Source of the DNA: Chlamydiota bacterium | Lineage (GTDB): Bacteria; Chlamydiota; Chlamydiia; Chlamydiales; SM23-39 | Direction of reading: 5' to 3' | Length of the DNA stretch: 21,607 nt | NCBI GenBank assembly: GCA_039179045.1 | Contig: JBCDEZ010000024.1 | Span: 1 to 21,607 of the forward strand | Shown here: in pieces, positions 6,136-21,567 of the stretch | Layout of the letters: each line of letters begins with the position of its first letter | How positions within the stretch are numbered: position 1 is the first letter of the stretch | The notes under the pieces: model-generated | Databases searched by the model: none | What the model saw: only the letters and a program-made list of their open reading frames with translations | What the model was told of the DNA's origin: nothing | Program-made: the position numbers and the translations under genes

Positions 6136-6209
6136 TAGCGGTAGACGGACTCGAACCGCCGACACGCGGATTATGATTCCGCTGCTCTAACCAACTGAGC
6201 TATACCGCC
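6136..6209 (-). tRNA. tRNA-Met (CAT), probably the elongator
   Basis: GGCGGTATAGCTCAGTTGGTTAGAGCAGCGGAATCATAATCCGCGTGTCGGCGGTTCGAGTCCGTCTACCGCTA folds as a cloverleaf with a CAT anticodon and no encoded CCA. tRNA-Ile2 cannot be formally excluded. Confidence 0.93.
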
Positions 6210-6215
6210 AAAAAA

Positions 6216-6288
<73 letters not shown>

Positions 6289-6338: not shown

Positions 6339-6486
6339 GGAGTTCGAAAAAAGAACCAGGGGGATCGCATTTGCATTTCCTCGCAAAAAATTTCTCCCAG
6401 GCTGATTCCATTCATGCAAAAATAGTTTTGCGTCCCTTTTCAACCTTTCTTGCCTTGTACGGCGCGGAGAACATGCGAATCCCATT

Positions 6487-6655
6487 TTCTAGTTAGGGAC
6501 ACATATTTTGCAGGAGAGTGGTCTTTAGAAATCTGTGACCTGTCTTCATGGAAGGTCGTTTCGAACACCCAAGATCACTGATTTTCTATACCCTAGTGAA
6601 ACCGAGTACATCCACCAATTCGTGCGGTATCTGGGGATTGAGAAGAAATCTAGAG
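6487..6655 (+). repeat. Structured intergenic element A (homologous to element B)
   Basis: Shares AGGAGAGTGG, TGAAACCGAGYAC, TATCT..GGA and GARG.AATC blocks, in order, with 18363-18255 on the minus strand; 9-bp stem AGTGGTCTT/AAGATCACT. Confidence 0.5.
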
Positions 6656-7536
6656 CCATTTTCCTCTTTCCCTTAACTTCTTGTGTCGCTTAGACTGAGC
6701 CATGGATGCTGCTGTACGAGATCTCCTATCTAAAGAAGGAGAACTCGCTGGATATGCTTTGATACGCATGGATTGGATATTGCTAAACCCGGTGTAGATG
6801 CTAAAAATTGCTAGCAAGGCAATCAAAACAGCTCCCACCTCTATTTTTCCGCTTAACCCAATTTTTCAAATGAAATGGGTATATTACAAACAATGTTCCT
6901 AAGACTGTTTGTCAAAACATAATTTTCAGAGAATACTCCTCAAAAAAGGCTATCGAGTGCGGAGTGAGAAGAGAAGCAATGTTTGATGCTATTGCACTTC
7001 GTCTAAAAGTTAGCCCTGTTGGACTTGATTCCAGAGGAAGACCTAGTCAACGCTTTATAGGAAAAAAACAGAAAAATTGATGAGCGGGCTGTCAAATGTC
7101 TATAGCAATGTAGAGCATCCTTCATCTTACAGCGAGATTGGGGTAGCTTTTTTTGGCGCAAAGGTAAGAAGAAAACGCCTGTAAGCTCAATATCTCAGGG
7201 GATCACGCTAATGAAATAATGGACTTATGTGGAGAACAACTGCAGCTAGTAGGATTGATGAAAAATACGACTCTATTCCAAACGGCAAGCTTCTTTGAGA
7301 CCTAGTGGATAAATTCCGCATGAGATAAATGCTGATTTCACCTCAGGCAAGTTTTCTTAGTTGCAGAGCCTTTAAATGGTGATTTTTCAGCGAAAAATCA
7401 TGGCTATTGGAATCTATACAGTAAAAATTTTATATGCGCACCCTGCATATAGGGGAAATTCTTCTTTCTATTAATTCACTCAAATTATAAAATCTTAATT
7501 TAGTATTTTTACTTTAACTACAGGTAATCATAAATC

Positions 7537-7983
7537 ATGATAGGCATCGGTTTAAATACTTTCCGTTCCCTTTCTTTACCGGAAAATCTTTTCGATAATT
7601 TTGGATTCAAATTACAGAGCGAGAACCCAGATTCGAAACAATTAGGTCGTATTGATATGGCCGCGAGTGCAATGCTCTTTTCATTTCATGTATCGGCCGC
7701 CATTCCTTTGTTGGGGGGCATGGTAGTTTGGTCCACGATGTTATCTGAAGCTGCAGTTATTATCTGCACTTCCTTCAGACCGTTGAATAGATCGAAAGCT
7801 GGGCATTTTTGTGGAAGAATATGCCGCCTATGCTTGATGAGAAATCCTCATTTTTTGTTGTTTGTGGACCTTTTAAAAGTTCTGTATAGCTACGGCGGAT
7901 TTGGATTATTGACCCTAAAGCCTGTAAGAGTTATTCAAGAAGGCTCTCAGCAAGTCTCACAACATTCTCAAAATGAAGCTTAA
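7537..7983 (+). CDS. Hypothetical membrane-associated protein, possibly frameshifted or truncated
   Basis: 148-aa ORF after an AT-rich promoter-like region; hydrophobic stretch at about residues 42-78; no recognisable family. Confidence 0.45.
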   Translation: MIGIGLNTFRSLSLPENLFDNFGFKLQSENPDSKQLGRIDMAASAMLFSFHVSAAIPLLGGMVVWSTMLSEAAVIICTSFRPLNRSKAGHFCGRICRLCLMRNPHFLLFVDLLKVLYSYGGFGLLTLKPVRVIQEGSQQVSQHSQNEA

Positions 7984-8190
7984 ACGCAAATGCTTTTTCC
8001 TATCGCGAAGCCTATCACATATTGAATCGCCTGAAAAAGCTCCTTTTTGGTAGCAAAAAAGGCACTCCTAGTGTTGCGTTTATTCCTTTTATGCCCATTT
8101 CACCCGAAGAATTGTATACAAAAAAATAGAGATGGAAGCTATTTATGATCCGTTTTTTCGGTTCGTGCAAAATCTCTAGAGTTTGTACGA

Positions 8191-8347
8191 ACCTGAGTTC
8201 TGGGTTTTAGTATGACTAAGAGTTGACTATCTTCAGGAAAGATATTGGGTGATGGTTCTTTAGACGGGCGGATCCATGCGACGTATCCGTCGATGCAAAA
8301 GCATCGCAGATGGTAGGGCAACCGAAGAAAATCCCTTGCGCTTCGAA
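8191..8347 (+). repeat. Structured intergenic element C (homologous to element D)
   Basis: 30/40 ungapped identity (8218-8257 vs 14480-14519), plus 14/18 and 11/13 flanking blocks and shared stems. Confidence 0.7.
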
Positions 8348-8405
8348 TGAATTGCTGGAATGGACAACTGGGAGATCAATATGCAAATTTTCCAAATCGG
8401 TCTGA

Positions 8406-8849
8406 TCAAGAACGGGGATTTTTGCAAGCAACGGCAAAACGGAAAAAAGTGCAAGCACTCTGGATCAAAGCAGCACCTACAGCAAGGTCGATCCACCCTC
8501 GGTACAGGGGAGGCAGCGCAAGACGGTTCATGAGAAGGCCCATACCCATCATTAAAAGAAGAATCAGAGCGGTCCTTTTATCGTAGAGTTGGAAAAAAGA
8601 GATCGGCCCCTCCCAATCCAAAATTCTTTGAAATATTCGCTCTGCTGTTCTACGTAACACCCATTTTCCCTTCAAAAATCCTACAAGAAGAGCCAAGGTC
8701 AAGTAGATCAAGAGTAGATTGTAAGAGGGATAAGAGCTCTCGGCGCTCAAAGCGCCCTCAAAGAAAAGGCGCAAACCTTTCGAGAGAAGGGAAAAGCCCC
8801 CTACCATCCAAAGAAGTCCAGAAATTGCTGTAGCTTGCCATTTATTCAT
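8406..8849 (-). CDS. Conserved small integral membrane protein (4 TM, chlamydia-type hypothetical)
   Basis: ISGLLWMVGG, LLVGFLKGKWVLRRTA.R...RI and RGWIDLAVGAALI pattern; four hydrophobic helices. Confidence 0.8.
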   Translation of the reverse strand: MNKWQATAISGLLWMVGGFSLLSKGLRLFFEGALSAESSYPSYNLLLIYLTLALLVGFLKGKWVLRRTAERIFQRILDWEGPISFFQLYDKRTALILLLMMGMGLLMNRLALPPLYRGWIDLAVGAALIQSACTFFRFAVACKNPRS

Positions 8850-9032
8850 AAAAACACCCGCTTTGCTTCTCGTTCTACTATGTTACTGTTTTTCCTGCAA
8901 TATTTTGTATAGCAGAAGAATGCCAACTTACCCTTTTGATTGCTCTTTTCTTGAGATATATAGAAATATTTTGGAAAACTATGGATTCGATAAATCCCAC
9001 TTATGGTAGGTTGAGATCTAAGGGAGATCTAT

Positions 9033-11150
9033 ATGCAAGACAGTGAGTTGTACACCTTAGAAGAGGCGATGGAAAATGTATCCATTGCCTCGGAAGCGAA
9101 CGAACCCTACCGACTCGGAATCATCGACCACCGGAGGCTGGTTCTCCAAGATGAGGAAAAAGAGCAAGAGTCGAGCTACTGGATTACTAAAGGAGCAAGC
9201 GAAGAGCTAATTGAGGTCATGCGCAATACCTTTTCCCGCCTGACTGTCTACCTGAAAGGCTTGTACAAAAATCCTGCGATCGATTGGAGCCAGGAGACCG
9301 TGAGAACGGGTTTACAATCGATGATGCTACTTGTGGCAGAAGCAGGCAAGAAGGTCGATCGAATTCTGCAGGAATTGGAGCACTCGTGCAAGCGGGTCCC
9401 CAAAATCACAAAAAGCTCCGAATACAAGATCTTGCAAGAATTCTACATCGACAACATTACCGAAAAATTCACCGAAATACCTCCACAAGGAGACGAGGCC
9501 TGGAGAGCGGATATTGATCAGGAATCGCCCGTAAAAGATCTAGAAACCATTCGCAGCGATGCTGCCTACGAGTTGTTCTACCTAAGAAATATCCACAACA
9601 AACCTCTATTCAAACGCAGCCTGATCAAAAATATGCGGCTTTTGTTCGATTTCAGCGAAACGCTTGATGTACCCTTAGAGGATGATCCCCTTCTTGAGAT
9701 TGTAACGATCAAAGATCGGGATCTGCAAGGCTCAGCCGAGCAAATTTTGCGTTCCCTCAAACCGCAATTGCAAGACTTTTATGCGTACAAAGTCCGAACG
9801 CAAGACCATGACCTGATCCACGCGCTCAATAAAGCGATCATGTCTTTGATGTTGGCAGCAAACGAAAAAAACCTTATTCACCATACCTTCAATAAAAACT
9901 GCTTGCGGTATTTTCTCGACTTCCAATATTTCTTCCGGGAGGCTTTGAATGCAACAGAGTACCAAAAGCTCCTCGCCTATCCCCCGGAAAAGGATTCTTT
10001 GGGAGCCTTTTTGCTCCGTTTCACCCACTGCCTTGCCTACGAGTTTTTTACAAGAGCTTCCTCTATCCGTCAGGAGATTTTAGGTTATATCCACCGGCTC
10101 ATTCGAAAAGGGGAAGAGTTGACAGAAGAGAAGGAAAGAAGTACTTCTCTTTGGGAAAAGCTTTTGCAAGAGAGCGAACAGGTACAAGCTCTTTTGCACC
10201 GCTACCCGAGCGGCCCCCTATTCAAAATGCTCGACACCCTACAAGAGGAAAATCAGGCACAACGCTTCGAGCCTTTGCAGCAGGAAAATATGCCCTTTTT
10301 ACTCTTTGCTTTGAGTACAGCAAACCAGACGTCGCACATCCTGCATCTACCCACACCCACCAAGCAGTCGGATCTAGCCAAAGCGGAAATTTCCGAAGAA
10401 TTTAGCGCTTTTCTTGCCTTTTTGCACGAGGGAAAAAAAGATAAACACCACTTGCTGATCAACCTACAAGACCGCACTTCATGGAAAGAGAGCACCCGCG
10501 CAACCGTGTTAGAGAACTTGCAAAAACGAGCGGAGTACACACACAATATTACTGTGGTTACTCTTCCCAAAGATACCGACTTTTACCACCAGAAAGACGC
10601 CTATGGAGATATTGGAGAAGCCTCTCTTTTTTTAGAGACCCTACAAGAGCAGCTTACCCACCCAGAAGATTTTGGCTTTTTTTTCGGAGAAACAAAAAAA
10701 AGCACTGTCCAGTTTTTCCAAAAACTCTCCCAAACAATGCACGAGCAGATATTCGCAGGAGAACAAAAGCTAACGGAACAAGAGAGGCGGGATTTCATCG
10801 AGCTCTTCTACCTTTTTCTTACTCTGAAGGTACTCCAAGATATCCAACCTGACACGGTGAGCTTTACCTGCAAAGATGCGCTGGACGTGGGCTCGATGAT
10901 GAGCGCGGGGTTCTTTGCTCTCATCAAGCTACTTCAAGGCAGTCCTTGGGAAAAAAGCGATGAAGATTACCTGCGTCTTTTGATCTACGCTCCTGTCTTG
11001 ATGGTGCGAGAGCGCTCTGTCGATTCGCGAAGACTCATCCGCACGCTTTGTGCTATCGCTACTTTAGAAGAAAAGACAACGGCAGAGGGTTGGAAAAAAC
11101 TACAAAATCTCTACAAGAAAGACTGGATCAAAAGCATGAGACTGATCTAG
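9033..11150 (+). CDS. Conserved chlamydia-type hypothetical protein (705 aa) with a degenerate phosphatase-like motif
   Basis: Long ORF with GGAG RBS; motifs LLINLQDRTSWKE, VVTLPKDTDFY and SFTCKDALD. Confidence 0.85.
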   Translation: MQDSELYTLEEAMENVSIASEANEPYRLGIIDHRRLVLQDEEKEQESSYWITKGASEELIEVMRNTFSRLTVYLKGLYKNPAIDWSQETVRTGLQSMMLLVAEAGKKVDRILQELEHSCKRVPKITKSSEYKILQEFYIDNITEKFTEIPPQGDEAWRADIDQESPVKDLETIRSDAAYELFYLRNIHNKPLFKRSLIKNMRLLFDFSETLDVPLEDDPLLEIVTIKDRDLQGSAEQILRSLKPQLQDFYAYKVRTQDHDLIHALNKAIMSLMLAANEKNLIHHTFNKNCLRYFLDFQYFFREALNATEYQKLLAYPPEKDSLGAFLLRFTHCLAYEFFTRASSIRQEILGYIHRLIRKGEELTEEKERSTSLWEKLLQESEQVQALLHRYPSGPLFKMLDTLQEENQAQRFEPLQQENMPFLLFALSTANQTSHILHLPTPTKQSDLAKAEISEEFSAFLAFLHEGKKDKHHLLINLQDRTSWKESTRATVLENLQKRAEYTHNITVVTLPKDTDFYHQKDAYGDIGEASLFLETLQEQLTHPEDFGFFFGETKKSTVQFFQKLSQTMHEQIFAGEQKLTEQERRDFIELFYLFLTLKVLQDIQPDTVSFTCKDALDVGSMMSAGFFALIKLLQGSPWEKSDEDYLRLLIYAPVLMVRERSVDSRRLIRTLCAIATLEEKTTAEGWKKLQNLYKKDWIKSMRLI

Positions 11151-11250
11151 CATTTCGCTAGATTTCTCAGGAATAACAAAAAACGAGTTTTTCCGACCTA
11201 CCATAGTGGTTGAAATTTAATTTCCCTTTGAGTTTGTCGAGCATGTGTGG

Positions 11251-11500
11251 ATGACTTACTTATTAGACCTAAGACAAACAGTCTTAAAGTATCTTGCTGA
11301 ACCAGGTTCGGAAAAAAGTGGTGGAAACTTTTGAGATTATGCTAAGCACGTTAGTACATAGGATCGAGCAAGAGTGCTGAAGAATTTGGAAGTACACCAC
11401 AGGCAGTATTTTATGCCCTTCGTAGCCTGAAGATTTCCTTAAAAAATCCCCTGCCACAAAGGAAGGGATCCGGAAGCAATTCCTCGAAGAGATCGAGAAT
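11251..11500 (+). pseudogene. Degraded IS630-family transposase fragment
   Basis: Fragments in different frames: MTYLLDLRQTVLKYL (IS630 N-terminal HTH, cf. MAYSLDLR..VL), AEEFGSTPQAVFYALRSLKISLK (11376-11444) and RKQFLEEIE (11471-11497); interrupted by stops and frameshifts; no DDE domain. Confidence 0.7.
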
Positions 11501-11590
11501 GATTTTTTGCTGACGAATGATGGCTTTAACCGTCTTTTCTGCAGTCGACTTATGAATGAACTCCGAAACTCAGGTTGGTAAAAGGAACTA

Positions 11591-12832
11591 TTATCCTTCA
11601 CAAGACTCGTCGTAGTAGTCAATGAGCTCTTCATTATAGAGTTTGAGATTGGAAAAAAGAGCCTCCACATCCAATAAAAGCTGGAGAAAACTCTCTTTGA
11701 AAGCACAACTATCCAAAATCTTCTTTTTCTCCTCATTGCAATCGGCTCGTTCTAACAGTAAAGAGATGCGAGAAAGAGCTGTATTGATCTGGTCCACCTC
11801 GCAAGAGAAGTACTGGCGAAATTCTTTCGGTGTTTGAACATTTTCGAGGTAGTTTGCTCGTTTAGTGCGCTTTTGCCAGCTTTTGTCATACTGGAAGAGG
11901 ATTCCGTAGTGGTTGATATCGTTCATGAGCGTATTGGCCTTGCTGAGAAGAGCTGTCACGCGGAGATAAAACTCATCAGAGGTGATGAGTTTGCCAAGGG
12001 TTCCTTTGCCGCACGCAATGTCTTGCACGGCAATGTTGATGCCTCGCAGAATTTGCTTGCCGTCGATATTGAAGGCCTGAGTGGCCTCAATCATATTTTC
12101 CACAAGAGCATTGACCTTACCAACAAGGTTCTCTTGGCGCGCTTGCTCGAGAGATTCACCGATCAAAGAGAGATCGTATTCGAGAGCTTCTACAGAACGA
12201 GTCATCTTGGGTACTAAGCGCTCTTCTTCAATTGAACAAAGCACGCGATCAAACGAGTTCATACCTTGCGAAAATGCGGTGATCGCCTCACTCAAATCGT
12301 CTGCATTTTCCATGAACCACTGGTCGAAATTGCGAACAAAAAGCTGGATTTGCCGTGATACGCTCGATACCTGATTGAGAGCATTTTCGAGGGGATCGAT
12401 TGACAGCGCATGAAGAATTTGATCGGTGACAGGTTTGAGCGGTACGCCTTTTGTAGGCGCTTTGGGGATGATTGCAATCGTTTTTTCTCCAAGTAATCCT
12501 GTTGTTTGCACGCTGATTTCATCTGTTGTGTACACCTGTACTTTGGAGTCTAATTTGAGGGTCAGCTGGTAGAAGTAGACCCTTTTTAGGAAGTCGGTTA
12601 CATCTTGGCGTGCATTAGGCACCTCTTGAATTTTCTGCACTTCACCCACTGGCTTTCCCGCGAAAGTAACGCGCGTTCCCTCTCCAATCCCAGAGATATT
12701 CGAAAAGCGCACCTGTAGCATTTTCTCCCCATCCCCCAGTCTAGGCTCAAGGAAGGCAATGAAGGAAAAAGAAAGGATGATGGCTGCCAATACAAATACG
12801 CCAATCAACACGTTTTTCCAGGTATTATTCAT
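11591..12832 (-). CDS. mlaD: MCE/MlaD-family lipid-transport substrate-binding protein with a long helical extension
   Basis: N-terminal TM anchor; MCE motifs F.NISGI..GT.VTFAGKPVGEV and GLLGEK.IAI.P; coiled-coil C-terminus. Confidence 0.9.
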   Translation of the reverse strand: MNNTWKNVLIGVFVLAAIILSFSFIAFLEPRLGDGEKMLQVRFSNISGIGEGTRVTFAGKPVGEVQKIQEVPNARQDVTDFLKRVYFYQLTLKLDSKVQVYTTDEISVQTTGLLGEKTIAIIPKAPTKGVPLKPVTDQILHALSIDPLENALNQVSSVSRQIQLFVRNFDQWFMENADDLSEAITAFSQGMNSFDRVLCSIEEERLVPKMTRSVEALEYDLSLIGESLEQARQENLVGKVNALVENMIEATQAFNIDGKQILRGINIAVQDIACGKGTLGKLITSDEFYLRVTALLSKANTLMNDINHYGILFQYDKSWQKRTKRANYLENVQTPKEFRQYFSCEVDQINTALSRISLLLERADCNEEKKKILDSCAFKESFLQLLLDVEALFSNLKLYNEELIDYYDESCEG

Positions 12833-13598
12833 GATCTTTCCTTGCTCTTGGAGGCTCGTATAAGGTTTTTTTCAAAAATTTGATGGTGGGATCATCAATC
12901 TCTAAGAATTCTTCGGGTGGTTTCACATACGCAATTTTCCCGTCTTGGTGTAGAGCCAACCGATCCGCAATGTACAAAGCTGAGTGCATGTCGTGCGTGA
13001 CCACAATGGATGTGCCTTGTAGCTCGTCTTGGGTTTGGACGATCAGCTCGTTGATCTGTTGGGAAGTAATCGGATCGAGCCCTGCCGTGGGCTCGTCGTA
13101 CAAAAGAATTTTCGGGCGGTAGACCAAAAGGCGCGCAAGAGCAGCCCGTTTACGCATTCCTCCCGAAAGGTCTGCTGGATTTTTATCTTCGTCTTCTTGC
13201 AAGCCTACCATACGAAGGGCCAAGCGCACCTTTTTTTTGATCTCTTGTTCTGTATAGGATCGCTGGGTTTCTGGATTGGGGTGCTGGCGCAAGTAAAAGG
13301 CAGTGTTCTCAAAAATGGTCATCGAATCGAAAAGAGCGGCCCCTTGAAAGAGCATGCCCATGTTCTTGACCGCTTTATAAAGCTCTTCTTGCGTAAGCTC
13401 AGAGATGGGAAGCCCATCGACATAAACGCTCCCCTCATCGGGCTTTTCTAAACCGATGATCTGTTTCAGAAGAACGCTTTTTCCCACACCAGAACGACCC
13501 AAAATCACTAGGATCTCTCCTTCTAACACATCGAGAGATAGGCCCTTCAAGATTTGCTTTTTCCCAAACCGCTTTTTCAATTTCCGAATCGAAATCAT
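12825..13598 (-). CDS. mlaF: ABC transporter ATP-binding subunit MlaF/Mkl
   Basis: Walker A GRSGVGKS, signature LSGGMRKR, Walker B ILLYDEP, H-loop VTHD. The start is ATG 13598 (MISIRKL), overlapping the mlaE stop as ATGA, not the track start at 13760. Confidence 0.93.
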   Translation of the reverse strand: MISIRKLKKRFGKKQILKGLSLDVLEGEILVILGRSGVGKSVLLKQIIGLEKPDEGSVYVDGLPISELTQEELYKAVKNMGMLFQGAALFDSMTIFENTAFYLRQHPNPETQRSYTEQEIKKKVRLALRMVGLQEDEDKNPADLSGGMRKRAALARLLVYRPKILLYDEPTAGLDPITSQQINELIVQTQDELQGTSIVVTHDMHSALYIADRLALHQDGKIAYVKPPEEFLEIDDPTIKFLKKTLYEPPRARKDHE

Positions 13599-14392
13599 GA
13601 GCCCCAATCCCACATCAGTTCTGCATGGATGGCATTGAGGCCCATCGTCAAGAAAAAGTCCCAAATCAAAATGAGTACGTAGCTGATGACTACACTCTTG
13701 GTCGTCGACATGCCAACGCCAGCTGCCCCCCCAGTTGTTTTGATCCCCTTGTAACAGCAAATAGTCACAAGAATCATCCCGAAGATCAAAGACTTGAATA
13801 CGCCCGTGAAAACGTCAAAGCCCGTAATATGGATTGGCATGGGGTTGTAGTAGGTAGCAGGCGACATCCCAAACCAAAGAACTGCGATGATGTATCCTCC
13901 CCATATACCCATCAACATACTGAAGATTGTTAGAAGAGGCACCATAATGATCCCTGCAATGCATCGAGGTGCTACGAGGTGACGATGGGGATCGATAGCC
14001 ATCGAACGAAGGGCATCGATCTGTTCGGATACTTTCATGGAACCTAGCTCAGCGCACATGGCAGACCCGACGCGTCCTGTGACCATAAAGGCGGTCAGGA
14101 TAGGACCGAGCTCGGTGATCATGGCTTTACCTACCAGCAGTCCAGTAACCCCAGCAAGCCCTTTATCGGACAGCTGATAGACTGACTGAGCCGCCAAAAC
14201 AAATCCCGTAGTGAAGCCTGTAATGGCTACTACAAGGGTCGACATCACACCAATATGGAAGAATTGTTCTCGAAAAAGTGCCCACGCAGGGGGCTTTTTG
14301 ATGACCGCTTTAGTACTATCAATAACAAGCCGGACATATTCCCCCACAGAGAAAAAGAGCGAAAGCAGAAAGAGTCGGACGGTATTTCCCAT
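13595..14392 (-). CDS. mlaE: ABC transporter permease MlaE/YrbE
   Basis: ELGPILTAFMVTGRVGSAMCAELGSMKVSEQIDALRSM..DP..LVAPR and GGAAGVG.STT.SVV motifs. Confidence 0.95.
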   Translation of the reverse strand: MGNTVRLFLLSLFFSVGEYVRLVIDSTKAVIKKPPAWALFREQFFHIGVMSTLVVAITGFTTGFVLAAQSVYQLSDKGLAGVTGLLVGKAMITELGPILTAFMVTGRVGSAMCAELGSMKVSEQIDALRSMAIDPHRHLVAPRCIAGIIMVPLLTIFSMLMGIWGGYIIAVLWFGMSPATYYNPMPIHITGFDVFTGVFKSLIFGMILVTICCYKGIKTTGGAAGVGMSTTKSVVISYVLILIWDFFLTMGLNAIHAELMWDWGS

Positions 14393-14410
14393 AGATATCT
14401 CTTAATCGAC

Positions 14411-14439
14411 ACTATAAAAAAGAGGCGCTTTCCGGTCAA
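14411..14439 (-). promoter_or_regulatory. Sigma70/sigma66-type promoter of the mlaEFD operon
   Basis: TTGACC (14439-14434), 17-nt spacer, TATAGT (14416-14411), 18 nt upstream of the mlaE ATG. Confidence 0.7.
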
Positions 14440-14453
14440 AAGAATGGTTATTT

Positions 14454-14614
14454 ACGTGGGTTTCGGGTTTTCAATCATCAAGAATTCGCTGTTCTCAGGA
14501 GAGAGATTGAGCGATGGTTTTCTATGCTAGACAGGCGTATAAGCCCCAGCCCTTTTCAAGGATAGGATACGCCTACCATTTTTTGATCTCTCCCGAAGTA
14601 ATCCGGGCATTCAA
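14454..14614 (+). repeat. Structured intergenic element D (homologous to element C)
   Basis: Nested stems GAGAGATTGA/TTGATCTCTC, ATGGT/ACCAT, AGGCGTAT/ATACGCCT and TTCGGGTT/AATCCGGG; colinear similarity to 8191-8347. Confidence 0.7.
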
Positions 14615-14701
14615 GAAATACACATTTACATCAGGCAGGTTTTTTTGCAGCAAATTTTTGCTATCCCACTCTTTTTTAATTGATTAAACTCGGAATTCAG
14701 G

Positions 14702-15538
14702 TTACTTCCGATAGGAATATCCCTCTCGATGTAAGCAGTTGCTGATGGCCTCTTCGAGACTTTTCCTGGTCTGACTGATGTTCTCTCCTGCCTGGATATT
14801 GCTATTCATTTTTACAAGCTTTTCTTGGTACCTGGTCTCTTCCATCTCACGGGGAGCTCTTACCCAGAGCACTCCCGCAACCTCCTTCGAAACATTTGCC
14901 GCTGTTGCAAGCGCATCTTTCCACTCATTTTGCCCATAGAGGCCTGTAGCGGAAGATCCGATTACAAGAGAAGTTGCAAGGGCTGTGACCCAAAGCTCTT
15001 GGTAGGTGAGGTCTCTTTTGTTAACACCCGATTGTTTGAATCGTTCCTTTATCTGTGCATTTTGACGCGCCTTTGTCCTGTGAACGTCATCAAACACCCT
15101 TTCGTAGTCTTCCCAAATCTCCCTGAGCATCTGGCTGATTCTGCAGTATTCTTTTGGAGATCGCCCTTCCTCCAAATCGCGCTCCACCACCTCATAGCAT
15201 TCCTCCAGCTTCTCGAGAAATTCAGAGGGGCTTGGCTTCGAGTGATCCTCAGCAGAAAGATCCATCAAAGAAGCGGGGGCAACCTCTTTTGGAGCAGAGG
15301 AGGGAAAGGGGACCGCGAGAGGCTCTCCTCCTAAGCTCACCCTCCCTATGAGAGGGTTTTTCTGCTTGGAATTCTCAGGCAAAAAGATACCACTAGCATT
15401 CTCTTTAGAGGGTAGTTGGGAAAGAGCCTGTTCGATATCAATGGGCCGCGCAGGAACAACGTCTACCGGAAGCAACGGGGGAGAAAAGCTGGGTGCTAGT
15501 CCGTCCTCTTCATGCATTTCATCAATAGCAGGTGTCAT
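14702..15538 (-). CDS. Putative T3SS minor translocator-like protein (CopD/SseD-like architecture)
   Basis: Disordered Pro/Ser N-terminus, coiled coil, single hydrophobic helix LWVTALATSLVIGSSATGLY, amphipathic C-terminus; AAGGAG RBS; last gene of the operon. Confidence 0.55.
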   Translation of the reverse strand: MTPAIDEMHEEDGLAPSFSPPLLPVDVVPARPIDIEQALSQLPSKENASGIFLPENSKQKNPLIGRVSLGGEPLAVPFPSSAPKEVAPASLMDLSAEDHSKPSPSEFLEKLEECYEVVERDLEEGRSPKEYCRISQMLREIWEDYERVFDDVHRTKARQNAQIKERFKQSGVNKRDLTYQELWVTALATSLVIGSSATGLYGQNEWKDALATAANVSKEVAGVLWVRAPREMEETRYQEKLVKMNSNIQAGENISQTRKSLEEAISNCLHREGYSYRK

Positions 15539-15624
15539 ATTCTTCTCCTTAGTAATTCATTTATGGGCTGCAGCGAATCTTTCGCAAGATCGTAAAAAAC
15601 AATGCCTATACGCGAGGCTGTGGG

Positions 15625-16902
15625 TCACGCCTCTAAAATTTTTTGAAGCACCCCACCCAAAGAGCGTAGGATCTTGCTCGCATTTTCATCCGATGTTCCC
15701 TCTCCCTCGCTTAGCTTTTCCATCACTTGAGTCAGCCGTACCACATTATTTTTGTATAGCGTGCGCAGGACATCCTCTTCGATAGTGCGCGTACGCATTT
15801 CGGTCAACTCCATATCTGTGAGGCAGGTCCAAGGAGTCGTGGCGAGTTTGGCAGAGTGCAAAAGAGTACTCATGAGCTCTTCGATTGCTTGGGGCAAGTG
15901 TTGATTGCCTAGTCCTTGGACAACGAGAGTAACGGAGAGAAGAGCCGCCATAGCGGCGACCAGCTGCGTGCCCAATTTTAGGCCTCTTGTGAGATCGTCC
16001 TGCGTTTTTTTTGTATCTGCCAATTTTTCCGCCAACTGCGACCAAAGAGGGGTCTCATTTAAAAGGCCGATTCCGCCCGAAGCGACCATCGGATAGGCAC
16101 ACTGCGCCAGGGGCGCTCCCGTAACAAAAAGAGCAATACCGGTCAAAATCCCTAGGCTCATGGACACGTTCTCCAACATCTGGAAGGTATCTTTCCATCC
16201 AGTTAAGTGTTGTTGCTTTTGTCGCAATTCTTCATGTACCACAGGCATTTCTCTAAGAAGCTCTTCATATTTACCCAACTGCTTTTCAAGAGATCCTGCA
16301 ATATCCTCTGCAAAACGGTGGAAGCCCGTATTCTGTTCTTGATTTTGTAGCAGTAGAGAATACAGGAAAAAAGCGAACCGTTCAGGCTCTTCGAAGGTGG
16401 GACTCTTTACTGCGTTATCGCTATAGCTCTCGATCTCAATTCCCTCTTGGAATCGAGGTGAAGGGGAGCCTGCGCGAGAAGAGGAGCGAGCGATCGATCT
16501 TTTAGATGCCTCTTTTGCGACAAGAGAAAGTAGAGAAGAGTTCTGTCCAGAAGGTAGAACAAAAGACGCGGGAGGTGTTGCAGAGGGATCTACGGTTTCT
16601 TCGAATGGAGAATGGGCCCCAGCTGAACAGGGAATGTGGGGATGGCGCTTCTTGAAGATAGGAGTAAGAGTGTCAGACCGCAAAGAGCACATCCCTCTCA
16701 AAGCAGACTCATCGAGATTTGGAGATAACAAGGAAGGGAAAGAGGCAAGTTTCTTCGATCGCGCAAAAACGGTTGAGCCGACTTTAGATATGCGCTGCAT
16801 GGTTTCCGTTTTTCGCGGTTTTTCCTTTGGATGATTTCTCTGCACACAAAGCGGGCAGCAAGAATGTGAGGAAACAGGAGCTTCCAAAAAATCGCTTGCC
16901 AT
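15625..16902 (-). CDS. Putative T3SS major translocator-like protein (CopB/SseC-like architecture)
   Basis: Ser/Pro-rich N-terminus, coiled coil, two hydrophobic regions (VSMSLGILTGIALFVTGAPLA..ASGGIGLL; LVAAMAALLSVTLVVQG), helical C-terminus. Confidence 0.6.
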   Translation of the reverse strand: MASDFLEAPVSSHSCCPLCVQRNHPKEKPRKTETMQRISKVGSTVFARSKKLASFPSLLSPNLDESALRGMCSLRSDTLTPIFKKRHPHIPCSAGAHSPFEETVDPSATPPASFVLPSGQNSSLLSLVAKEASKRSIARSSSRAGSPSPRFQEGIEIESYSDNAVKSPTFEEPERFAFFLYSLLLQNQEQNTGFHRFAEDIAGSLEKQLGKYEELLREMPVVHEELRQKQQHLTGWKDTFQMLENVSMSLGILTGIALFVTGAPLAQCAYPMVASGGIGLLNETPLWSQLAEKLADTKKTQDDLTRGLKLGTQLVAAMAALLSVTLVVQGLGNQHLPQAIEELMSTLLHSAKLATTPWTCLTDMELTEMRTRTIEEDVLRTLYKNNVVRLTQVMEKLSEGEGTSDENASKILRSLGGVLQKILEA

Positions 16903-16911
16903 GTCTATCCT

Positions 16912-17946
16912 CTACTGTCCGCCCATTCTACGTGTGATGTTCGCTTTGAAATCCTTGTCAGAGCGCAAGATTTCCTGCACAATTTGCATCAACTGATTGA
17001 GGAGTTCCAAATCTTGGGAAGCTTTCCTGTATTCATTCGGTATTTTTTGCGTCAGAAGTGTTCTTTCCGCATCGGCCTGATTTTTCAAGGTTCTTAATTC
17101 ACTTGTTGTAAAAGTTCTTTTCCCCTTTTCTATCAACCCAGACTTCTCTAGAACGCGAAAGCCCTCATCCATACTCCCCTCTTCAAAGGTATACTCGGCT
17201 GGAAGATCCTCTCCAAGAGTGTCCAATTTAGACCAGAGCCTTTGTATGTTCTCAAGATCTTGAAAATACCTTTCGGCTTCCTCTCCAGAAGCAAAGCCCT
17301 TACGATTCAACAACATTTCGTAGCTAGTATAGAAACGCAAGGCAAGATTCGTGGGATTCTCTTCGTATTGAGAAGGCACAGCTTCATCTAAAGAAAGGTC
17401 CTCTTTCACCGAAGAGATCTCCTCGAGTAAGGCACTATCCGGAGGGGAAGACGCGAGCGCTTGAGGAACGGTATCCGGCCTGCGCTCCAATGGCTTGGAG
17501 CAGCTCTTTTCAACAGTCCTAGAGTTGGCATCCAGGCGTGCTAGATTAAAGATGGACGGAGCCCCTCTCGGTGCTATTTCTTCCTTGGGATCTTGAAAAG
17601 GAGTCTGAGCCGCTCTCGGATCTGCGTCTGAGAACAAACTGTTCCCATAAAATAGCGCTTGGTCAGGTGCAGGGGAAAAGAAACGGGAACACTTTCGAAA
17701 AAGATGGGGGGAAACGAGCGGTTTTTTGGCACTGAGCTCGTGAGTGCAAGGCGGAAAAGTAGAGGGCGAGCTTTGAAAAAACCGCCCTAAAGTGGGCACG
17801 AAAGAGGAAGAGGAAAAGACAGGAGGAGCTAGCGAACTGGTCTTTTCAATATTTTTCTCAAGAATAGAAGAAATAGGCACTTGCTCGTGTATCGGTGTAG
17901 CACCGAAAGGATCCACACCTTCTTCTTCCTCTAGATAAACTTCCAT
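16912..17946 (-). CDS. Putative T3SS-secreted protein with an EspA/SseB/Bsp22-like helical C-terminus
   Basis: ATG 17946 with AGGAG RBS; about 190-aa disordered N-terminus; C-terminal ...ASQDLELLNQLMQIVQEILRSDKDFKANITRRM amphipathic helix. Confidence 0.5.
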   Translation of the reverse strand: MEVYLEEEEGVDPFGATPIHEQVPISSILEKNIEKTSSLAPPVFSSSSFVPTLGRFFQSSPSTFPPCTHELSAKKPLVSPHLFRKCSRFFSPAPDQALFYGNSLFSDADPRAAQTPFQDPKEEIAPRGAPSIFNLARLDANSRTVEKSCSKPLERRPDTVPQALASSPPDSALLEEISSVKEDLSLDEAVPSQYEENPTNLALRFYTSYEMLLNRKGFASGEEAERYFQDLENIQRLWSKLDTLGEDLPAEYTFEEGSMDEGFRVLEKSGLIEKGKRTFTTSELRTLKNQADAERTLLTQKIPNEYRKASQDLELLNQLMQIVQEILRSDKDFKANITRRMGGQ

Positions 17947-17979
17947 CAATTCCTACTCCTTAACGTTGGACTCACGTGT

Positions 17980-18008
17980 ATCATAGAAGTTCTCACGTTT
18001 CTCGCCAA
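17980..18008 (-). promoter_or_regulatory. Sigma70/sigma66-type promoter for the translocon-like operon
   Basis: TTGGCG (18008-18003), 17-nt spacer, TATGAT (17985-17980). Confidence 0.65.
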
Positions 18009-18045
18009 GTTTCTTTTCGTTTCGCTTAGAGAAGATAAAGTGCGT

Positions 18046-18228
18046 ACATCTTTGCGGGTAGGCAACCGCGGTAACTCTTGAAGTCGGTGCTGGAGAAACT
18101 GACGGGATTTGTATTTGAAAAGTGGACTTTTGTTGGATAAACCAAGAGTAGGTTTTTGCATCAAGCTACAGATCCCAAATAGGTAAACCGTGCGCTTATT
18201 GTTTGTGCTAACCCTGCTCTTAAGATGC
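18046..18228 (+). ncRNA. Candidate structured RNA, element E (about 180 nt)
   Basis: Five nested or branched helices, with G-U pairs on the + strand; -10-like TAAAGT at 18036-18041 just upstream. Confidence 0.45.
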
Positions 18229-18232
18229 AAAA

Positions 18233-18363
18233 GGGAGCTCTCGTAATATAGAACACGCCCCTCGATTACCTCCTCTATTGTCCGGAGATAAGACGTTTTA
18301 GGTGCTCGGTTTCATCAACAGGGCAGTAGAGTTGTAGCTCCCATTTTAGGAAGCCACTCTCCT
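18233..18363 (-). repeat. Structured element B overlapping the 3' end of the 1073-aa gene (homologous to element A)
   Basis: 9-bp stem GTGGCTTCC/GGGAGCTAC spanning the stop codon; motif blocks shared with 6512-6650. Confidence 0.5.
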
Positions 18364-21300
18364 CACAAATCCTTTCTCTTCCAGGAAACGCAAGATAACG
18401 GCAGGCGCGTAATTTTCATCGCTATCCAACAGCTGTTCTCTCTCCTCGGGGGAGGGGAATGTGTCCATGACCCAATCGTTGAAAGAGGCAAGAGGAAGAT
18501 CGCGATCGCGCACATCGGTTAGTTTTTTCTGGAATAGTGCTACCACTTTTTTCGCCGTATAACGCTTTTGGAATCCCAACGTGACGGGAATCTCCTTCCC
18601 CTTCAACGCAAAGCGCCGCGTGTAGCGGGTGTCCAAAGTCGCTACAGAATCAAGCGCAAACATGTTGGAAAATAACGATTTATAGTACGTGACCGAAGCA
18701 GTGCCATGGGTTATGTATTCTCTATCGTTTTCTTCTTCCAAGACCTGATTTACCACAACGGTGAATTCGATATTGCGCTCTTTTTGCAATACCTTTTGCA
18801 AACGAAGCGCCAAATCGTTCTCCGTTGGACGCAGGACTCGATAGAAGAGCGTCTCCAGTACCATGTTCACACCATTGGTACAACGATTTTCTACCGCCTC
18901 CACAAATTCTTGTGCCACGATCTGCAATCTCTCGGGAAATGTTTCTTTTGAACCATCATTCCACAAAGAGTTCAAGATAGCAGAGAGCATCTTTTTGATT
19001 TTCTCCTGGTTATCATTTCCAAAAGCCCTTCCATAATGGTCGCTTGCAGTTCTATTCGCAAATCCGCTTAGGGCCTCTCGGAATCGAGATAGTAGATCCC
19101 GATCCATACCGCCATCTGCATTCGAGAGCATTCTGTACGCCTCTCCCTGTTGAAATACGATCCCATACAATATCGTCGCATCAAAAAGAGGGGCGTGAGG
19201 ATCATTCCAAAGCTCTTGACCTATCGTTGCATAAGATGCGTCTGCAAGCTCATATTTTCCTTGGTTTAGTGCTACGTGGAGCTTTGTTTTAGACAAAATA
19301 TCTTGGAAGATCTTCTCACAATTTTTTTTCTTATCGAGAAATACCTCTTTTGCTTGTTCTGGTAACTGAGCAAAACTCGGTACAACTAGCAAAGAATCCA
19401 TTTTCTCTTGCAAGGGCGCTAGATAAGTGGCGCGCTCATTCGGAGTCTTGAGAGCTGAGTGGGCAGGATCACTTGTCTTCGCTCGCAACGCTTTTGCGAC
19501 TTCATCGGCAAGGGAAAGAGTTGTTACGAATAGCTCATTTTTGTAGACGGACCGGATCTCTAGAATTCTCCGATCGCACTCCTCCTTGAGCAGAGCAAGT
19601 GTTTGCTGCGCCTTTGGAGTGAGCTCAGGCGAAGAGATCGCCGTATGCAACCATTTCCTCACGGTTTCCATCTTCTGCAAAATGCTTGATCGGCTTTCTT
19701 GATTCAGAGGGATGTTCTCGAAAAGATGGGGATCGAACACTTCTTGCAAGATCGCGTAGAAAAAGACCTTGTTTTTTTGCATAAGGAATGTCAAGATTTC
19801 TTGTTTTAGGGTACTTTCCGAGATAATGTTTTTTAGAAGCATCTCTATCTGTTCTTTTGCCTTGCGCAACTCCTTGCGCTCACGTGCTGTGCAGTAATCC
19901 TTGTTCACCATAGAAGAAAAAACCTGCACTTCCTCCAGCAATTTCGTAAGTTGCGTCACCTCTTTTTTTACTCGAGACAGAACTATGTTTTTTCGTATTT
20001 TTGGACGCAAAGACTTTCCAACAGCAAGCTGCTCTGAAAGGATCGCTACTAGAGAAGTTTGACGAGACTCCAGCTTTTCTTTCTCTGTTTTTAAAAAGGA
20101 GAGTACTTGCGTAAAGCGCGCTATTTCTAACTTCTCTTCGACTGCGCTCATGCCTTGGAAAAGAGAAATCCATTGCTGTCGCGTAAAGTCTTCTGCATAT
20201 AAGCAAAGGCTGAGGCTTTCCCGCTCTTCTTTTAAAGAGCTAATGACAGCGGGATCTGGGTTTTCACCCATTGCCCTCAATTCCTCGTCAATATTGCTCA
20301 AAAAGGCCATGACACTCTGAAAACGCTTCTCTTGCGCCTCTTTTTGTACCTTTTCCAAGGTGTCTAAAAATTGCACAACGGATTGCTCGATTTTGTCCAT
20401 TGCTGTTGGTGCAAGAGCGCGCTCTAGCATGTTACCGAAACAAAATAGAGCTTTGCTTCCCCATTGCTGGAAAGAAGCACCCGCTTTGCGTAGCTTTCGT
20501 GCAGTCTGGGCTGCGGAATCGTTTTGCTCCCCATTCATGAAATGCTTTGCAGCGCTCAAAAGAGTAGCGGCCCACATTTTCTGGATCTTTTCTTGAGCTC
20601 GTTGGGATGTATTTTCGTATCTTGTTTGCAGTTCTTGTAAACTCGTTCGAACGGAAACCGTTAATTCTTGTTGAAGCTGACTCGCAAACCACTCCCGAGC
20701 AATCTTGGCACCTTTGCGATGCTCATCTGCTGTCTTTTCAATATACGCGGCGCCCGCCTCTACTTCCCCCTTCATGAACATATCTTCCACGTGTTTGCTG
20801 GATATGCCCTGGCTCAACTGCTCAATTTCCTGTAGGAATCGGTGCGCCTTGGATAGGCGAGGAGCTTGTAAAAGAGTGTGCACCAATGTTTGGGATCTTT
20901 GAGCTAGCTTCTTTGCTCTTCCGAGAGACTCAGTAAATGTACGCCCGCGCCATTCGGCAAGACCTGCGTTTTGGGCTTTATTGATAAGAACGTCAAATGC
21001 CGTTACAAAATCTGTAAGCTTTTCTTTCTGCTCTACGACCCGATTCTGCATATCAGCTATAGCTCCATCTTGCAGTCTATCGAACTTCTGGAAAATGGCA
21101 TTTTGTTCTCGGGTAAGCTCGTCTACCGGTGTTTTTAGCACTGCAATGTGATCCCCGTAGTAGGAGCACCTTTCCTGGAGCAATTGGCGTTTTTTTTCTT
21201 GAAAAGCCTTCAAGAATTGTGTTTTTTGGCGCGTAATCTCGTTACGGTAGCACTCTGCGGTTGCCTCTCTTGCATACCGGTCAAACAATGTGACAAATGT

Positions 21301-21567
21301 TTCCTGGATTTTCTCGAATTCACTTGGTTTGAGCGTATGCAACTGATGTACTAAGACCTCATCCCTACAAAATCCTTGGATGCGGAGCTTTTTTGCGAGA
21401 TAGACAAGGTGGAGATTGCGGAAGTAAGACAAGCAGTAGCTCAACACTACCCGTGCAAGCTCCAAAAATGTCCAGTTGCCTGCAATTTTGTCCAAAGATT
21501 GGGTTTCCAGCCCAACGGGATCTTGTGATTTCGACCAAACAATTTTCACGGGAAGCAACTGACTCAT
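18346..21567 (-). CDS. Large coiled-coil protein (1073 aa), probable secreted effector with a C-terminal NEL/DUF1548-like domain
   Basis: Uninterrupted ORF with GAGG RBS; K/E/Q/L-rich helical body; C-terminal AVENRCTNG..VLE.L and later THG motifs. Confidence 0.8.
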   Translation of the reverse strand: MSQLLPVKIVWSKSQDPVGLETQSLDKIAGNWTFLELARVVLSYCLSYFRNLHLVYLAKKLRIQGFCRDEVLVHQLHTLKPSEFEKIQETFVTLFDRYAREATAECYRNEITRQKTQFLKAFQEKKRQLLQERCSYYGDHIAVLKTPVDELTREQNAIFQKFDRLQDGAIADMQNRVVEQKEKLTDFVTAFDVLINKAQNAGLAEWRGRTFTESLGRAKKLAQRSQTLVHTLLQAPRLSKAHRFLQEIEQLSQGISSKHVEDMFMKGEVEAGAAYIEKTADEHRKGAKIAREWFASQLQQELTVSVRTSLQELQTRYENTSQRAQEKIQKMWAATLLSAAKHFMNGEQNDSAAQTARKLRKAGASFQQWGSKALFCFGNMLERALAPTAMDKIEQSVVQFLDTLEKVQKEAQEKRFQSVMAFLSNIDEELRAMGENPDPAVISSLKEERESLSLCLYAEDFTRQQWISLFQGMSAVEEKLEIARFTQVLSFLKTEKEKLESRQTSLVAILSEQLAVGKSLRPKIRKNIVLSRVKKEVTQLTKLLEEVQVFSSMVNKDYCTARERKELRKAKEQIEMLLKNIISESTLKQEILTFLMQKNKVFFYAILQEVFDPHLFENIPLNQESRSSILQKMETVRKWLHTAISSPELTPKAQQTLALLKEECDRRILEIRSVYKNELFVTTLSLADEVAKALRAKTSDPAHSALKTPNERATYLAPLQEKMDSLLVVPSFAQLPEQAKEVFLDKKKNCEKIFQDILSKTKLHVALNQGKYELADASYATIGQELWNDPHAPLFDATILYGIVFQQGEAYRMLSNADGGMDRDLLSRFREALSGFANRTASDHYGRAFGNDNQEKIKKMLSAILNSLWNDGSKETFPERLQIVAQEFVEAVENRCTNGVNMVLETLFYRVLRPTENDLALRLQKVLQKERNIEFTVVVNQVLEEENDREYITHGTASVTYYKSLFSNMFALDSVATLDTRYTRRFALKGKEIPVTLGFQKRYTAKKVVALFQKKLTDVRDRDLPLASFNDWVMDTFPSPEEREQLLDSDENYAPAVILRFLEEKGFVRRVAS

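Follow-up and report, generated by a model that had tools for sequence, protein, structure and literature searches.

Among MITEs of the IS630 family, the textbook examples are the Correia/NEMIS and RUP elements, and effects on transcripts have been reported for Correia elements. Rickettsia palindromic elements are stable palindromes that often lie in frame inside genes. MITEs derived from IS982 have already been described from an endosymbiont, Cardinium cOegib, which carries MITECca01 and MITECca02 as well as an eroded 250-bp ISCca4 remnant, all IS982-derived (PMC9769881). For the chlamydial species Rhabdochlamydia oedothoracis, the main text of the genome report gives 415 transposase genes, of which 129 are functional; the words MITE, IS982, IS630 and ISAs1 are absent from that main text, and its supplements may name families (PMC9723776).

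The window analysed here is a stretch of 21,607 nucleotides from a Chlamydiota bacterium, in which the original prediction grouped five intergenic segments (A to E) as one family of covarying, structured elements. It is very likely that these segments are IS debris from three families, IS982 for C and D, ISAs1 for A, and IS630 for a further repeat, F, and probably for E, with B being the tail of a gene. Old, decaying insertion-sequence remains are scattered through the intergenic DNA of this genome, and short chance motifs would have led to pieces of three of them being joined. The two MITE families and the ISAs1 remnants together cover about 20.7 kb, or 1.6% of the assembly. Like R. oedothoracis, for which the main text describes many, mostly dead transposases (PMC9723776), this genome supplies a chlamydial case of the expansion and decay of insertion sequences that is familiar from intracellular bacteria. 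The significance of the repeats themselves reaches little past annotation.

The IS982-derived repeat of segments C and D

Segment D (14454-14614) belongs to a longer unit at positions 14454 to 14702 of the plus strand, identified by its sequence as a full-length, 249-nt MITE derived from IS982 (nhmmer E-value 2.7e-58). The unit has imperfect terminal inverted repeats and is flanked by TATTT and TACTT, and the transposase frame of its parent reads on the minus strand. Segment C belongs to this family with its first part only (8190-8290, plus strand; model positions 1-100; nhmmer E-value 5.8e-17). When this part was translated and was aligned with D, with five further copies from the genome and with one IS982 right end, one terminal inverted repeat and an antisense transposase tail became visible; C is a truncated copy of the D MITE that has its 5' part only. 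The tail of C (8291-8347) lies outside the family by background-window scoring. Its interpretation as the eroded 3' half of the MITE was rejected, since 8291-8430 scored below background, with 1027 of 1500 random windows reaching as high a value; two weak genomic matches were obtained for 8346-8401 (E-values 0.005 and 0.096).

In the genome as a whole the D family has 53 matches, 18 of which are full length, with about 68% identity. The copies measure 220-267 nt, encode no transposase and have a consensus that is broken in all six frames. Nearly all matches (51 of 53) are located mostly outside long reading frames, even though such frames cover 84% of the genome. An initial 34-nt pattern gave no matches in the genome collection. 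The 18-nt inverted repeat of the family was found at 63 loci in GTDB genomes, 22 of them with chlamydial names in their titles. Elements of about 1.0 kb that are bounded by this inverted repeat and encode pieces of an IS982 transposase (best E-value 4.5e-66) occur at loci L033 and L081, and their ends are identical in kind to those of the 18 full copies. Model positions 2-99 match the right end of IS982 in L086 (E-value 4e-9), and positions 136-265 match the left ends in L024 (7e-11) and L081 (0.0016), with the same peptide tail and the same ribosome-binding site and ATG in the arms of D and in the IS982 ends. The internal sequence of the family descends from both ends of a parent IS982.

From known MITE biology we infer that the family arose through internal deletion, was mobilised in trans and is inactive at present. 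An IS982 element may have lost its middle, by which its left end, with inverted repeat, upstream region, ribosome-binding site and start codon kept, would have become fused to the right inverted repeat together with the 30 or so codons at the end of the transposase frame. An IS982 transposase supplied in trans could have acted on the inverted repeats of the resulting unit of about 260 nt and spread it to 50 sites or more, and subsequent decay would have brought the copies to about 68% identity. An IS982 transposase was not found in this assembly, which is 88% complete and consists of 79 contigs, and the parent is therefore deduced from other genomes; the absence bears on present activity and not on origin. 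The IS982 copy of a genome from the same genus did not match the ends of the D MITE, and matches to D in relatives were restricted to 23-34 nt in one of 102 other genomes of the family. Target duplications are not clear, as the 5-bp flanks agree for 56% against a background of 48% and are within one mismatch in 6 of the 18 full-length copies.

The MITEs of Cardinium resemble the D family in length (about 240-250 bp), in IS982-type inverted repeats without a transposase, and in their many, mostly intergenic, lineage-specific copies in an intracellular bacterium. The 250-bp ISCca4 remnant has moreover retained, like the D family, a short stretch from the 3' end of the transposase gene (PMC9769881). 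The likeness is one of description, between repeats that apparently differ in sequence and come from different phyla. The Cardinium genome furthermore contains intact parents and 169 copies (PMC9769881), whereas the D family, for which no parent was detected, has copies of only about 68% identity.

Just outside the D MITE, a consensus scan indicated a promoter-like site of the mlaE operon (TTGACC-17-TATAGT; 14411-14439, minus strand), at a frequency close to chance (one site against 0.7 expected). Similar sequences occur in the spacers of two relatives (G001 and G020). Without the MITE, the mlaE spacer has a length of 61 nt, as compared to 58 nt in G020.

The IS630-derived repeat F and the ISAs1 remnant

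A third repeat, F, which has 83 genomic matches, among them 33 full copies, and adjoins both A and C, was overlooked in the original prediction. One end of it (model positions 1-59) is located at 6824-6883 on the minus strand (nhmmer E-value 2.2e-14), and a half copy (model positions 3-94) lies directly before C at 8092-8182 on the plus strand (E-value 4.6e-18). The minus strand of this half copy matches the C-terminus of an IS630 transposase in 13 of 19 amino acids, and F matches both ends of the genome's own IS630 copies (E-values 2e-34 and 8e-8). A right TA is present in 16 of the 20 full copies that have a left TA, and the TA duplication is visible when filled and empty ISAs1 sites of F are compared. 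Thus characterised by its ends and target site, F can be classified as an IS630-derived MITE that duplicates TA. The process envisaged for IS982 could, when acting on an IS630 element, have given the approximately 176-nt MITE F, and probably E too.

With its short length, two IS630 ends, duplicated TA, intergenic location (76 of 83 matches are mostly outside long reading frames) and dozens of copies, F is similar to other IS630-family MITEs, but it lacks a strong shared hairpin (SCI 0.31 and 0.10). Copies of F are nested within one ISAs1 copy and within one member of the D family, which means that F moved later; such nested insertions put the waves of spread in order. Both D and F share with the Rickettsia palindromic elements that they are dispersed repeats of 100-250 nt in an intracellular bacterium. 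The identity with such elements that had been proposed does not hold, since neither family forms a stable palindrome and only 2 of 53 and 7 of 83 matches, respectively, are in reading frames.

Segment A (6487-6655) is included in a decayed insertion sequence of the ISAs1 family (6357-6729, minus strand), of which the 3' part of the transposase gene and the right end are left. The transposase profile NF033564, which has 16 matches in the genome, aligns over positions 247-308 with 6485-6673 (E-value 4.3e-9, three stops), a fragment scoring below the family cut-off. The remnant aligns at 56% over 124 aa with a copy on contig C50 (tblastn, E-value 1.5e-39), and 6355-6728 matches an ISAs1 copy on contig C1 at the DNA level. 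Segment A shares profile positions 247-308 with ISAs1 transposase pseudogenes, of which the window holds just a broken 3' fragment. These comparisons identify A as antisense sequence from the 3' end of an ISAs1 transposase gene that is no longer intact, read on the wrong strand. The consensus fold of six copies of A is weak (SCI 0.41 on the plus and 0.34 on the minus strand), with fewer broken pairs than in shuffles on both strands, and relatedness alone can yield such values.

Segments B and E

By the list of open reading frames and the genomic copy count, B (18233-18363, minus strand) consists of the last codons and the 3' flank of a 1073-aa ORF (18346-21567) and occurs once. A search with residues 600-1073 of this ORF, covering candidates of 590-1878 aa, gave no homologue at E <= 0.001. 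B is best regarded as a single-copy gene tail with an at most marginal likeness to the ISAs1 segment. The original prediction considered the A/B pair well supported, but its alignment is not significant against dinucleotide shuffles (p=0.074). It is conceivable, yet rather doubtful, that B is a very old, deleted scrap of ISAs1 and that the A/B pair reflects true but ancient homology. The short blocks are collinear, and under one scoring the value of B against ISAs1 copies is reached by 45 of 2000 background windows; two other scorings give 132 and 162 of 2000, the HMM of the A family has no match at E <= 10, and the first block lies inside the coding end of the ORF. Such an origin would affect only B and does not conflict with the explanation of the window as IS debris.

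For E (18046-18236, minus strand), also a single-copy segment, alignment against background points to a probable, very ancient copy of F, the IS630-derived MITE. Identity to F is 63% over 166 aligned nt, and none of 2500 masked background windows scored as high. With the F HMM the match is not significant (E-value 0.15 in the window and 8.9 genome-wide), and the last 15 nt or so align poorly.

There is a slight chance that E by itself acts as a functional sRNA, or as a leader upstream of the gene run 17949-14702, possibly derived from an old IS630 MITE. On the plus strand E folds as a rod, with a z-score of -2.1, or -2.9 with the ends given in the original prediction, and 6 of 200 shuffles fold as well; in a sequence comparison, its terminal stem appears in another register than the pairing of the MITE inverted repeats. 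However, z <= -2 is also attained by 3 of 60 183-mers taken at random from the genome, and a consensus scan found no plus-strand promoter or terminator. The 102 other genomes of the family contain no full-length homologue, only matches of 24-50 nt in three of them, and in G001 and G020 there is neither room nor a match at the syntenic position. For E and B taken together, homologues in relatives were likewise restricted to short matches, seen in 4 of 60 other genomes and in 3 of 102. The more specific view that E is a domesticated ancient IS630 MITE, which once immobile gained a new 6S-sized rod in the opposite register and serves as small RNA or leader for the uncharacterised genes 17949-14702, is marginally less probable still; if true, a chlamydial lineage would have turned a MITE into a new structured RNA.

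The proposal that the five segments form one RNA family

The motifs quoted for A to E in the original prediction are present at the positions given, and the window does contain multi-copy non-coding DNA, but the five do not form a family. In pairwise local alignments against 500 dinucleotide shuffles each, C/D was the sole significant pair of ten (no shuffle scored as high), which bears out the support claimed for this pair and justifies the doubt expressed about merging all five. The other nine pairs had p-values of 0.07-1.0, or 0.17-1.0 when A/B is left aside. Genomic copy numbers are 13 for A, 42-48 for C/D, and one each for B and E. Blocks 2-4, written in loose form as our own regular expression, occur 417 times in the genome, or about 6.8 times per window of this size; when block 1 is added the pattern is rare (six genomic matches) and fits only C and D. 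An exact-seed repeat finder yielded nothing useful within the window because the copies are too diverged.

The boundaries proposed for the segments also need revision, as D runs to 14702, A is inside the 6357-6729 remnant, and of C only 8190-8290 belongs to the family. The conserved blocks of A, C and D correspond to antisense transposase codons. The suggested alternative of a MITE-like element does apply to C and D, and probably to E.

No fold common to A-E emerged from the five-way alignment, its consensus having five pairs and -1.84 kcal/mol. Fold z-scores on the given strand were +0.09 for A, -0.05 for C, -1.5 for D, -2.0 for B and -2.9 for E. The stems were said to be kept by compensatory changes, with selection on a single-stranded fold; among true homologues, the 18 full-length D-family copies, there is no consensus structure on either strand. 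At the 58 pairs predicted for D, 63 double changes were counted across the other 17 copies and 58.5 +/- 3.5 in shuffles, whereas the same script gave 44 against 11 for a conserved RNA used as positive control.

The idea of a single undescribed structured RNA repeated in A-E, in which a conserved scaffold carries variable, guide-like loops and which a protein would use in trans, is therefore largely refuted and very improbable. The short motifs do exist, C and D are multi-copy homologues, z-scores of about -2 to -2.9 were obtained for B and E, and, in line with the original prediction, no Rfam family accounts for the segments: two tRNAs were the only significant Rfam matches in the window. Against this stand the three unrelated IS sources, the antisense transposase codons, the lack of covariation and the lack of a partner, since a search for the proposed IS110 or TnpB genes with PF02371 and PF07282 (partners of IS110 bridge RNA and TnpB omega RNA) found none in the 88% complete assembly. 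The case calls for caution, since decayed MITEs viewed on the antisense strand can mimic a covarying RNA family.

E resembles 6S RNA in length (about 185 nt) and in the overall shape of its centroid fold, a rod with a central bubble, but that it is the 6S RNA of this organism is extremely improbable, and an orthologue was ruled out, as RF00013 gives no match, a conserved 6S-like RNA sits on another contig (C7), and a covariance model of this lineage's 6S-like RNA misses E at E <= 2 with filters off. The 6S-like RNA, located outside the window, is a more useful by-product of the analysis: in this order it is conserved, covarying and undetected by Rfam 15, and at 19 of 30 loci it lies at the 3' end of a gene resembling lipoate ligase.

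Repeat content of the five segments

The repeats in the window are real, but the grouping that the original prediction gave them is wrong, and they are ordinary IS debris. Segments A (6487–6655, plus strand), C (8191–8347, plus), D (14454–14614, plus), E (18046–18228, plus) and B (18233–18363, minus) had been taken as one family of covarying structured elements. All motifs quoted for it are found in the sequence; in a loose pattern of our own, blocks 2–4 are expected about 6.8 times per window from their genome frequency. Iterated nhmmer searches of the own genome (1.32 Mb, 79 contigs, an 88% complete assembly) split the segments, with 13 copies of A, 48 of D, 42 of C and one each of B and E, the copies of C and D being the same family. 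Pairwise alignment was significant for C/D only (500 shuffles), the one pair above dinucleotide-shuffled controls, and the supposed homology of A and B gave p = 0.074 against 500 shuffles. Aligned together, the five segments yield a consensus fold of 5 pairs (−1.84 kcal/mol). The nhmmer searches also gave 60 copies of a repeat at 8100–8185 that had not been predicted. Two tRNAs are the sole clear Rfam matches in the window, and its genes, among them a TLC nucleotide transporter and the mla operon, suggest chlamydial DNA.

Stems kept by compensatory change, as had been claimed, were not recovered. RNAalifold gave no consensus for 18 full D-family copies on either strand, the predicted structure of D has 63 double changes versus 58.5 in shuffles (p = 0.13), and its terminal stem has 5 double changes versus 56 broken pairs; for a control RNA, the same script found covariation to be strong (44 double changes versus 11 in shuffles). 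Regarding strand-specific G-U pairing, the given strand indeed folds more stably than its complement, but A and C fold no better than their own shuffles. As a possible partner of a guide RNA, neither an IS110 nor a TnpB family member turned up in the assembly.

Elements C and D as IS982 derivatives

A 265-nt D-family model, built from full copies, has 53 genomic matches, 18 of them full length (220–267 nt, mean identity 68%) with imperfect inverted repeats at both boundaries. The window holds a full copy at 14454–14702; C covers model positions 1–100 only, and its tail, considered as further family sequence, proved unrelated. One arm of the model matches an IS982 right end (E 4e-9) and the other IS982 left ends (E 7e-11 and 0.0016); translation of the right arm yields the tail of the IS982 transposase, and the left arm terminates in a ribosome-binding site and start codon. 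Since both arms match IS982 ends and the transposase tail is shared, the D-family unit is, judged by these alignments, an internal-deletion derivative of IS982. With these ends, the inverted repeats and the 53 matches, the alternative of a MITE-like mobile element stands for C and D.

Across GTDB genomes, 63 loci carry the 18-nt inverted repeat, 22 of them under chlamydial names, and two of the 63 are elements of about 1.0 kb carrying IS982 transposase pieces. Several others (L043, L046, L050, L062, L074, L076 and L085), in other genomes of which some are chlamydial, are similar MITEs of 165–176 nt with both IS982-type inverted repeats, lacking a match to the D-family model. No IS982 transposase was found in the window's own assembly (88% complete), the IS982 copy of a same-genus genome has ends that differ from those of the D family, and target duplications in D-family flanks are not distinct. 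Among the other 102 genomes searched from the organism's family, the D family was not found beyond 23–34-nt matches in one. The D copy lies just outside a promoter-like mlaE site. Minus this copy, the spacer before mlaE is 61 nt, compared with 58 nt in the related genome G020, where the upstream gene counts as an orthologue by its position and not by sequence proof; in a third genome, G001, the spacer is 394 nt and has no match.

By what is established for MITEs, such an element would have arisen when a parent IS lost its interior, the parent's DDE transposase would then have copied it in trans, and neutral decay of the copies would have followed. Elements of these kinds are already known: a Cardinium endosymbiont has an IS982-derived MITE (about 240 bp) as well as a remnant of 250 bp retaining the transposase 3′ end (PMC9769881), and Rhabdochlamydia has gone through IS expansion and decay (PMC9723776). 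No description of MITEs in Chlamydiota was found in titles and abstract starts, most subscription papers lying outside the search. A 393-aa ORF in another chlamydial genome (L024:2001–3307) takes its start and about its first 20 codons from an IS982 left end and is not transposase-like beyond them, a possible case of gene birth from an IS end.

IS630 and ISAs1 derivatives

A further family, F, had been overlooked. It is an IS630-derived MITE of about 176 nt, with 83 matches at E ≤ 0.001 and a mean identity of 80% among 20 full copies, 16 of which have TA on both sides (30 copies examined), and IS630 copies in the own genome match it at both of their ends. One copy is nested in an ISAs1 copy (G000:C1:39677–39855), with a TA duplication seen against two empty sites, and another in a D-family copy (G000:C25:384–559); F thus moved later than both. 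Unpredicted fragments of F flank A (6824–6883, minus) and C (8092–8182, plus). At 7389–7457, a repeat of about 60 nt that has five genomic matches of weak to moderate strength and closes with a word resembling the ISAs1 inverted repeat is probably another IS end, and weak repeats at 11285–11468, matching C52:2160–2381 and an IS630 remnant on contig C25 (E 0.002), are probably more IS debris.

Element E is single-copy in the own genome by ordinary search, and its HMM match to F is weak (E 0.15 for the window and 8.9 genome-wide). Its minus strand aligns over the full length of F with 63% identity and scores 42.3 versus 17.5 ± 5.5 in the background, a value that none of 2500 masked genomic windows attains. 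Because this test (free ends, fixed 300-nt window) was done after the weak HMM match had been seen, we regard E as probably, and not certainly, a copy of F. Its fold is the best of the five segments (z −2.1 and −2.9); 3 of 60 random genomic windows have z ≤ −2. Neither a homologue of E nor a conserved site was found in relatives. Three adjacent ORFs at 14702–17949 (minus; 278, 425 and 345 aa), without Pfam or NCBIfam match, are syntenic in G001 and fast-evolving (22–40% identity); their hydrophobic segments suggest, as an impression only, secreted or translocator-like proteins.

Element A lies in an ISAs1 remnant that extends from about 6357 to 6729 (minus) by comparison with better-kept copies. 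The ISAs1 transposase model, which has 16 matches in the genome including this region, aligns to the minus strand at 6485–6673 over positions 247–308 (E 4.3e-9, three stops); read against it, the 'blocks' of A are antisense transposase codons. Complete copies, 6 of the 13 matches, are 75% identical, and their consensus fold is no more than weak on either strand (SCI 0.41 and 0.34). Two tRNA genes with CAU anticodons (6136–6209 and 6216–6288, minus) directly adjoin the remnant. The single-copy B takes in the last codons of a 1073-aa ORF (18346–21567, minus) and is marginally like ISAs1 copies, 45, 132 and 162 of 2000 background windows scoring as high; it may be an ancient ISAs1 scrap or a chance likeness. 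The ORF has no family match, no homologue was found for residues 600–1073, and the syntenic regions retrieved from G001 and G020 lack it.

A 6S-like RNA outside the window

The size and shape of E had raised the idea of a 6S RNA, which was rejected; the covariance model of a conserved 6S-like RNA does not match E. The Rfam model RF00013 reached its cut-off in none of 41 genomes; its sole weak match, in genome G009 (E 0.033, sub-threshold), led to this conserved, rod-shaped RNA of about 165–205 nt, followed by a T run. It may already be included in a 2014 survey of bacterial 6S RNAs. No paper on chlamydial 6S RNA was found in the literature searched, where the passages of PMC12558409 concern Wolbachia, and no novelty is claimed.

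Convergent with a lipoate-ligase-like gene, the RNA lies at that gene's 3′ end in 19 of 30 loci (this family and order): in the own genome at G000:C7:31086–31263 (plus), and elsewhere at L095, L096, L099–L103, L106, L108–L111, L115–L117, L119, L123 and L124. Seventeen copies share the rod fold with double changes at 17 of 27 pairs, a strong covariation, and the RNA at C7:31086–31263 and its relatives are a candidate chlamydial 6S RNA that Rfam 15 does not detect. The covariance model recovers two loci outside its training set (83 and 62 bits), and C7:31086–31263 is its sole match in the own genome.
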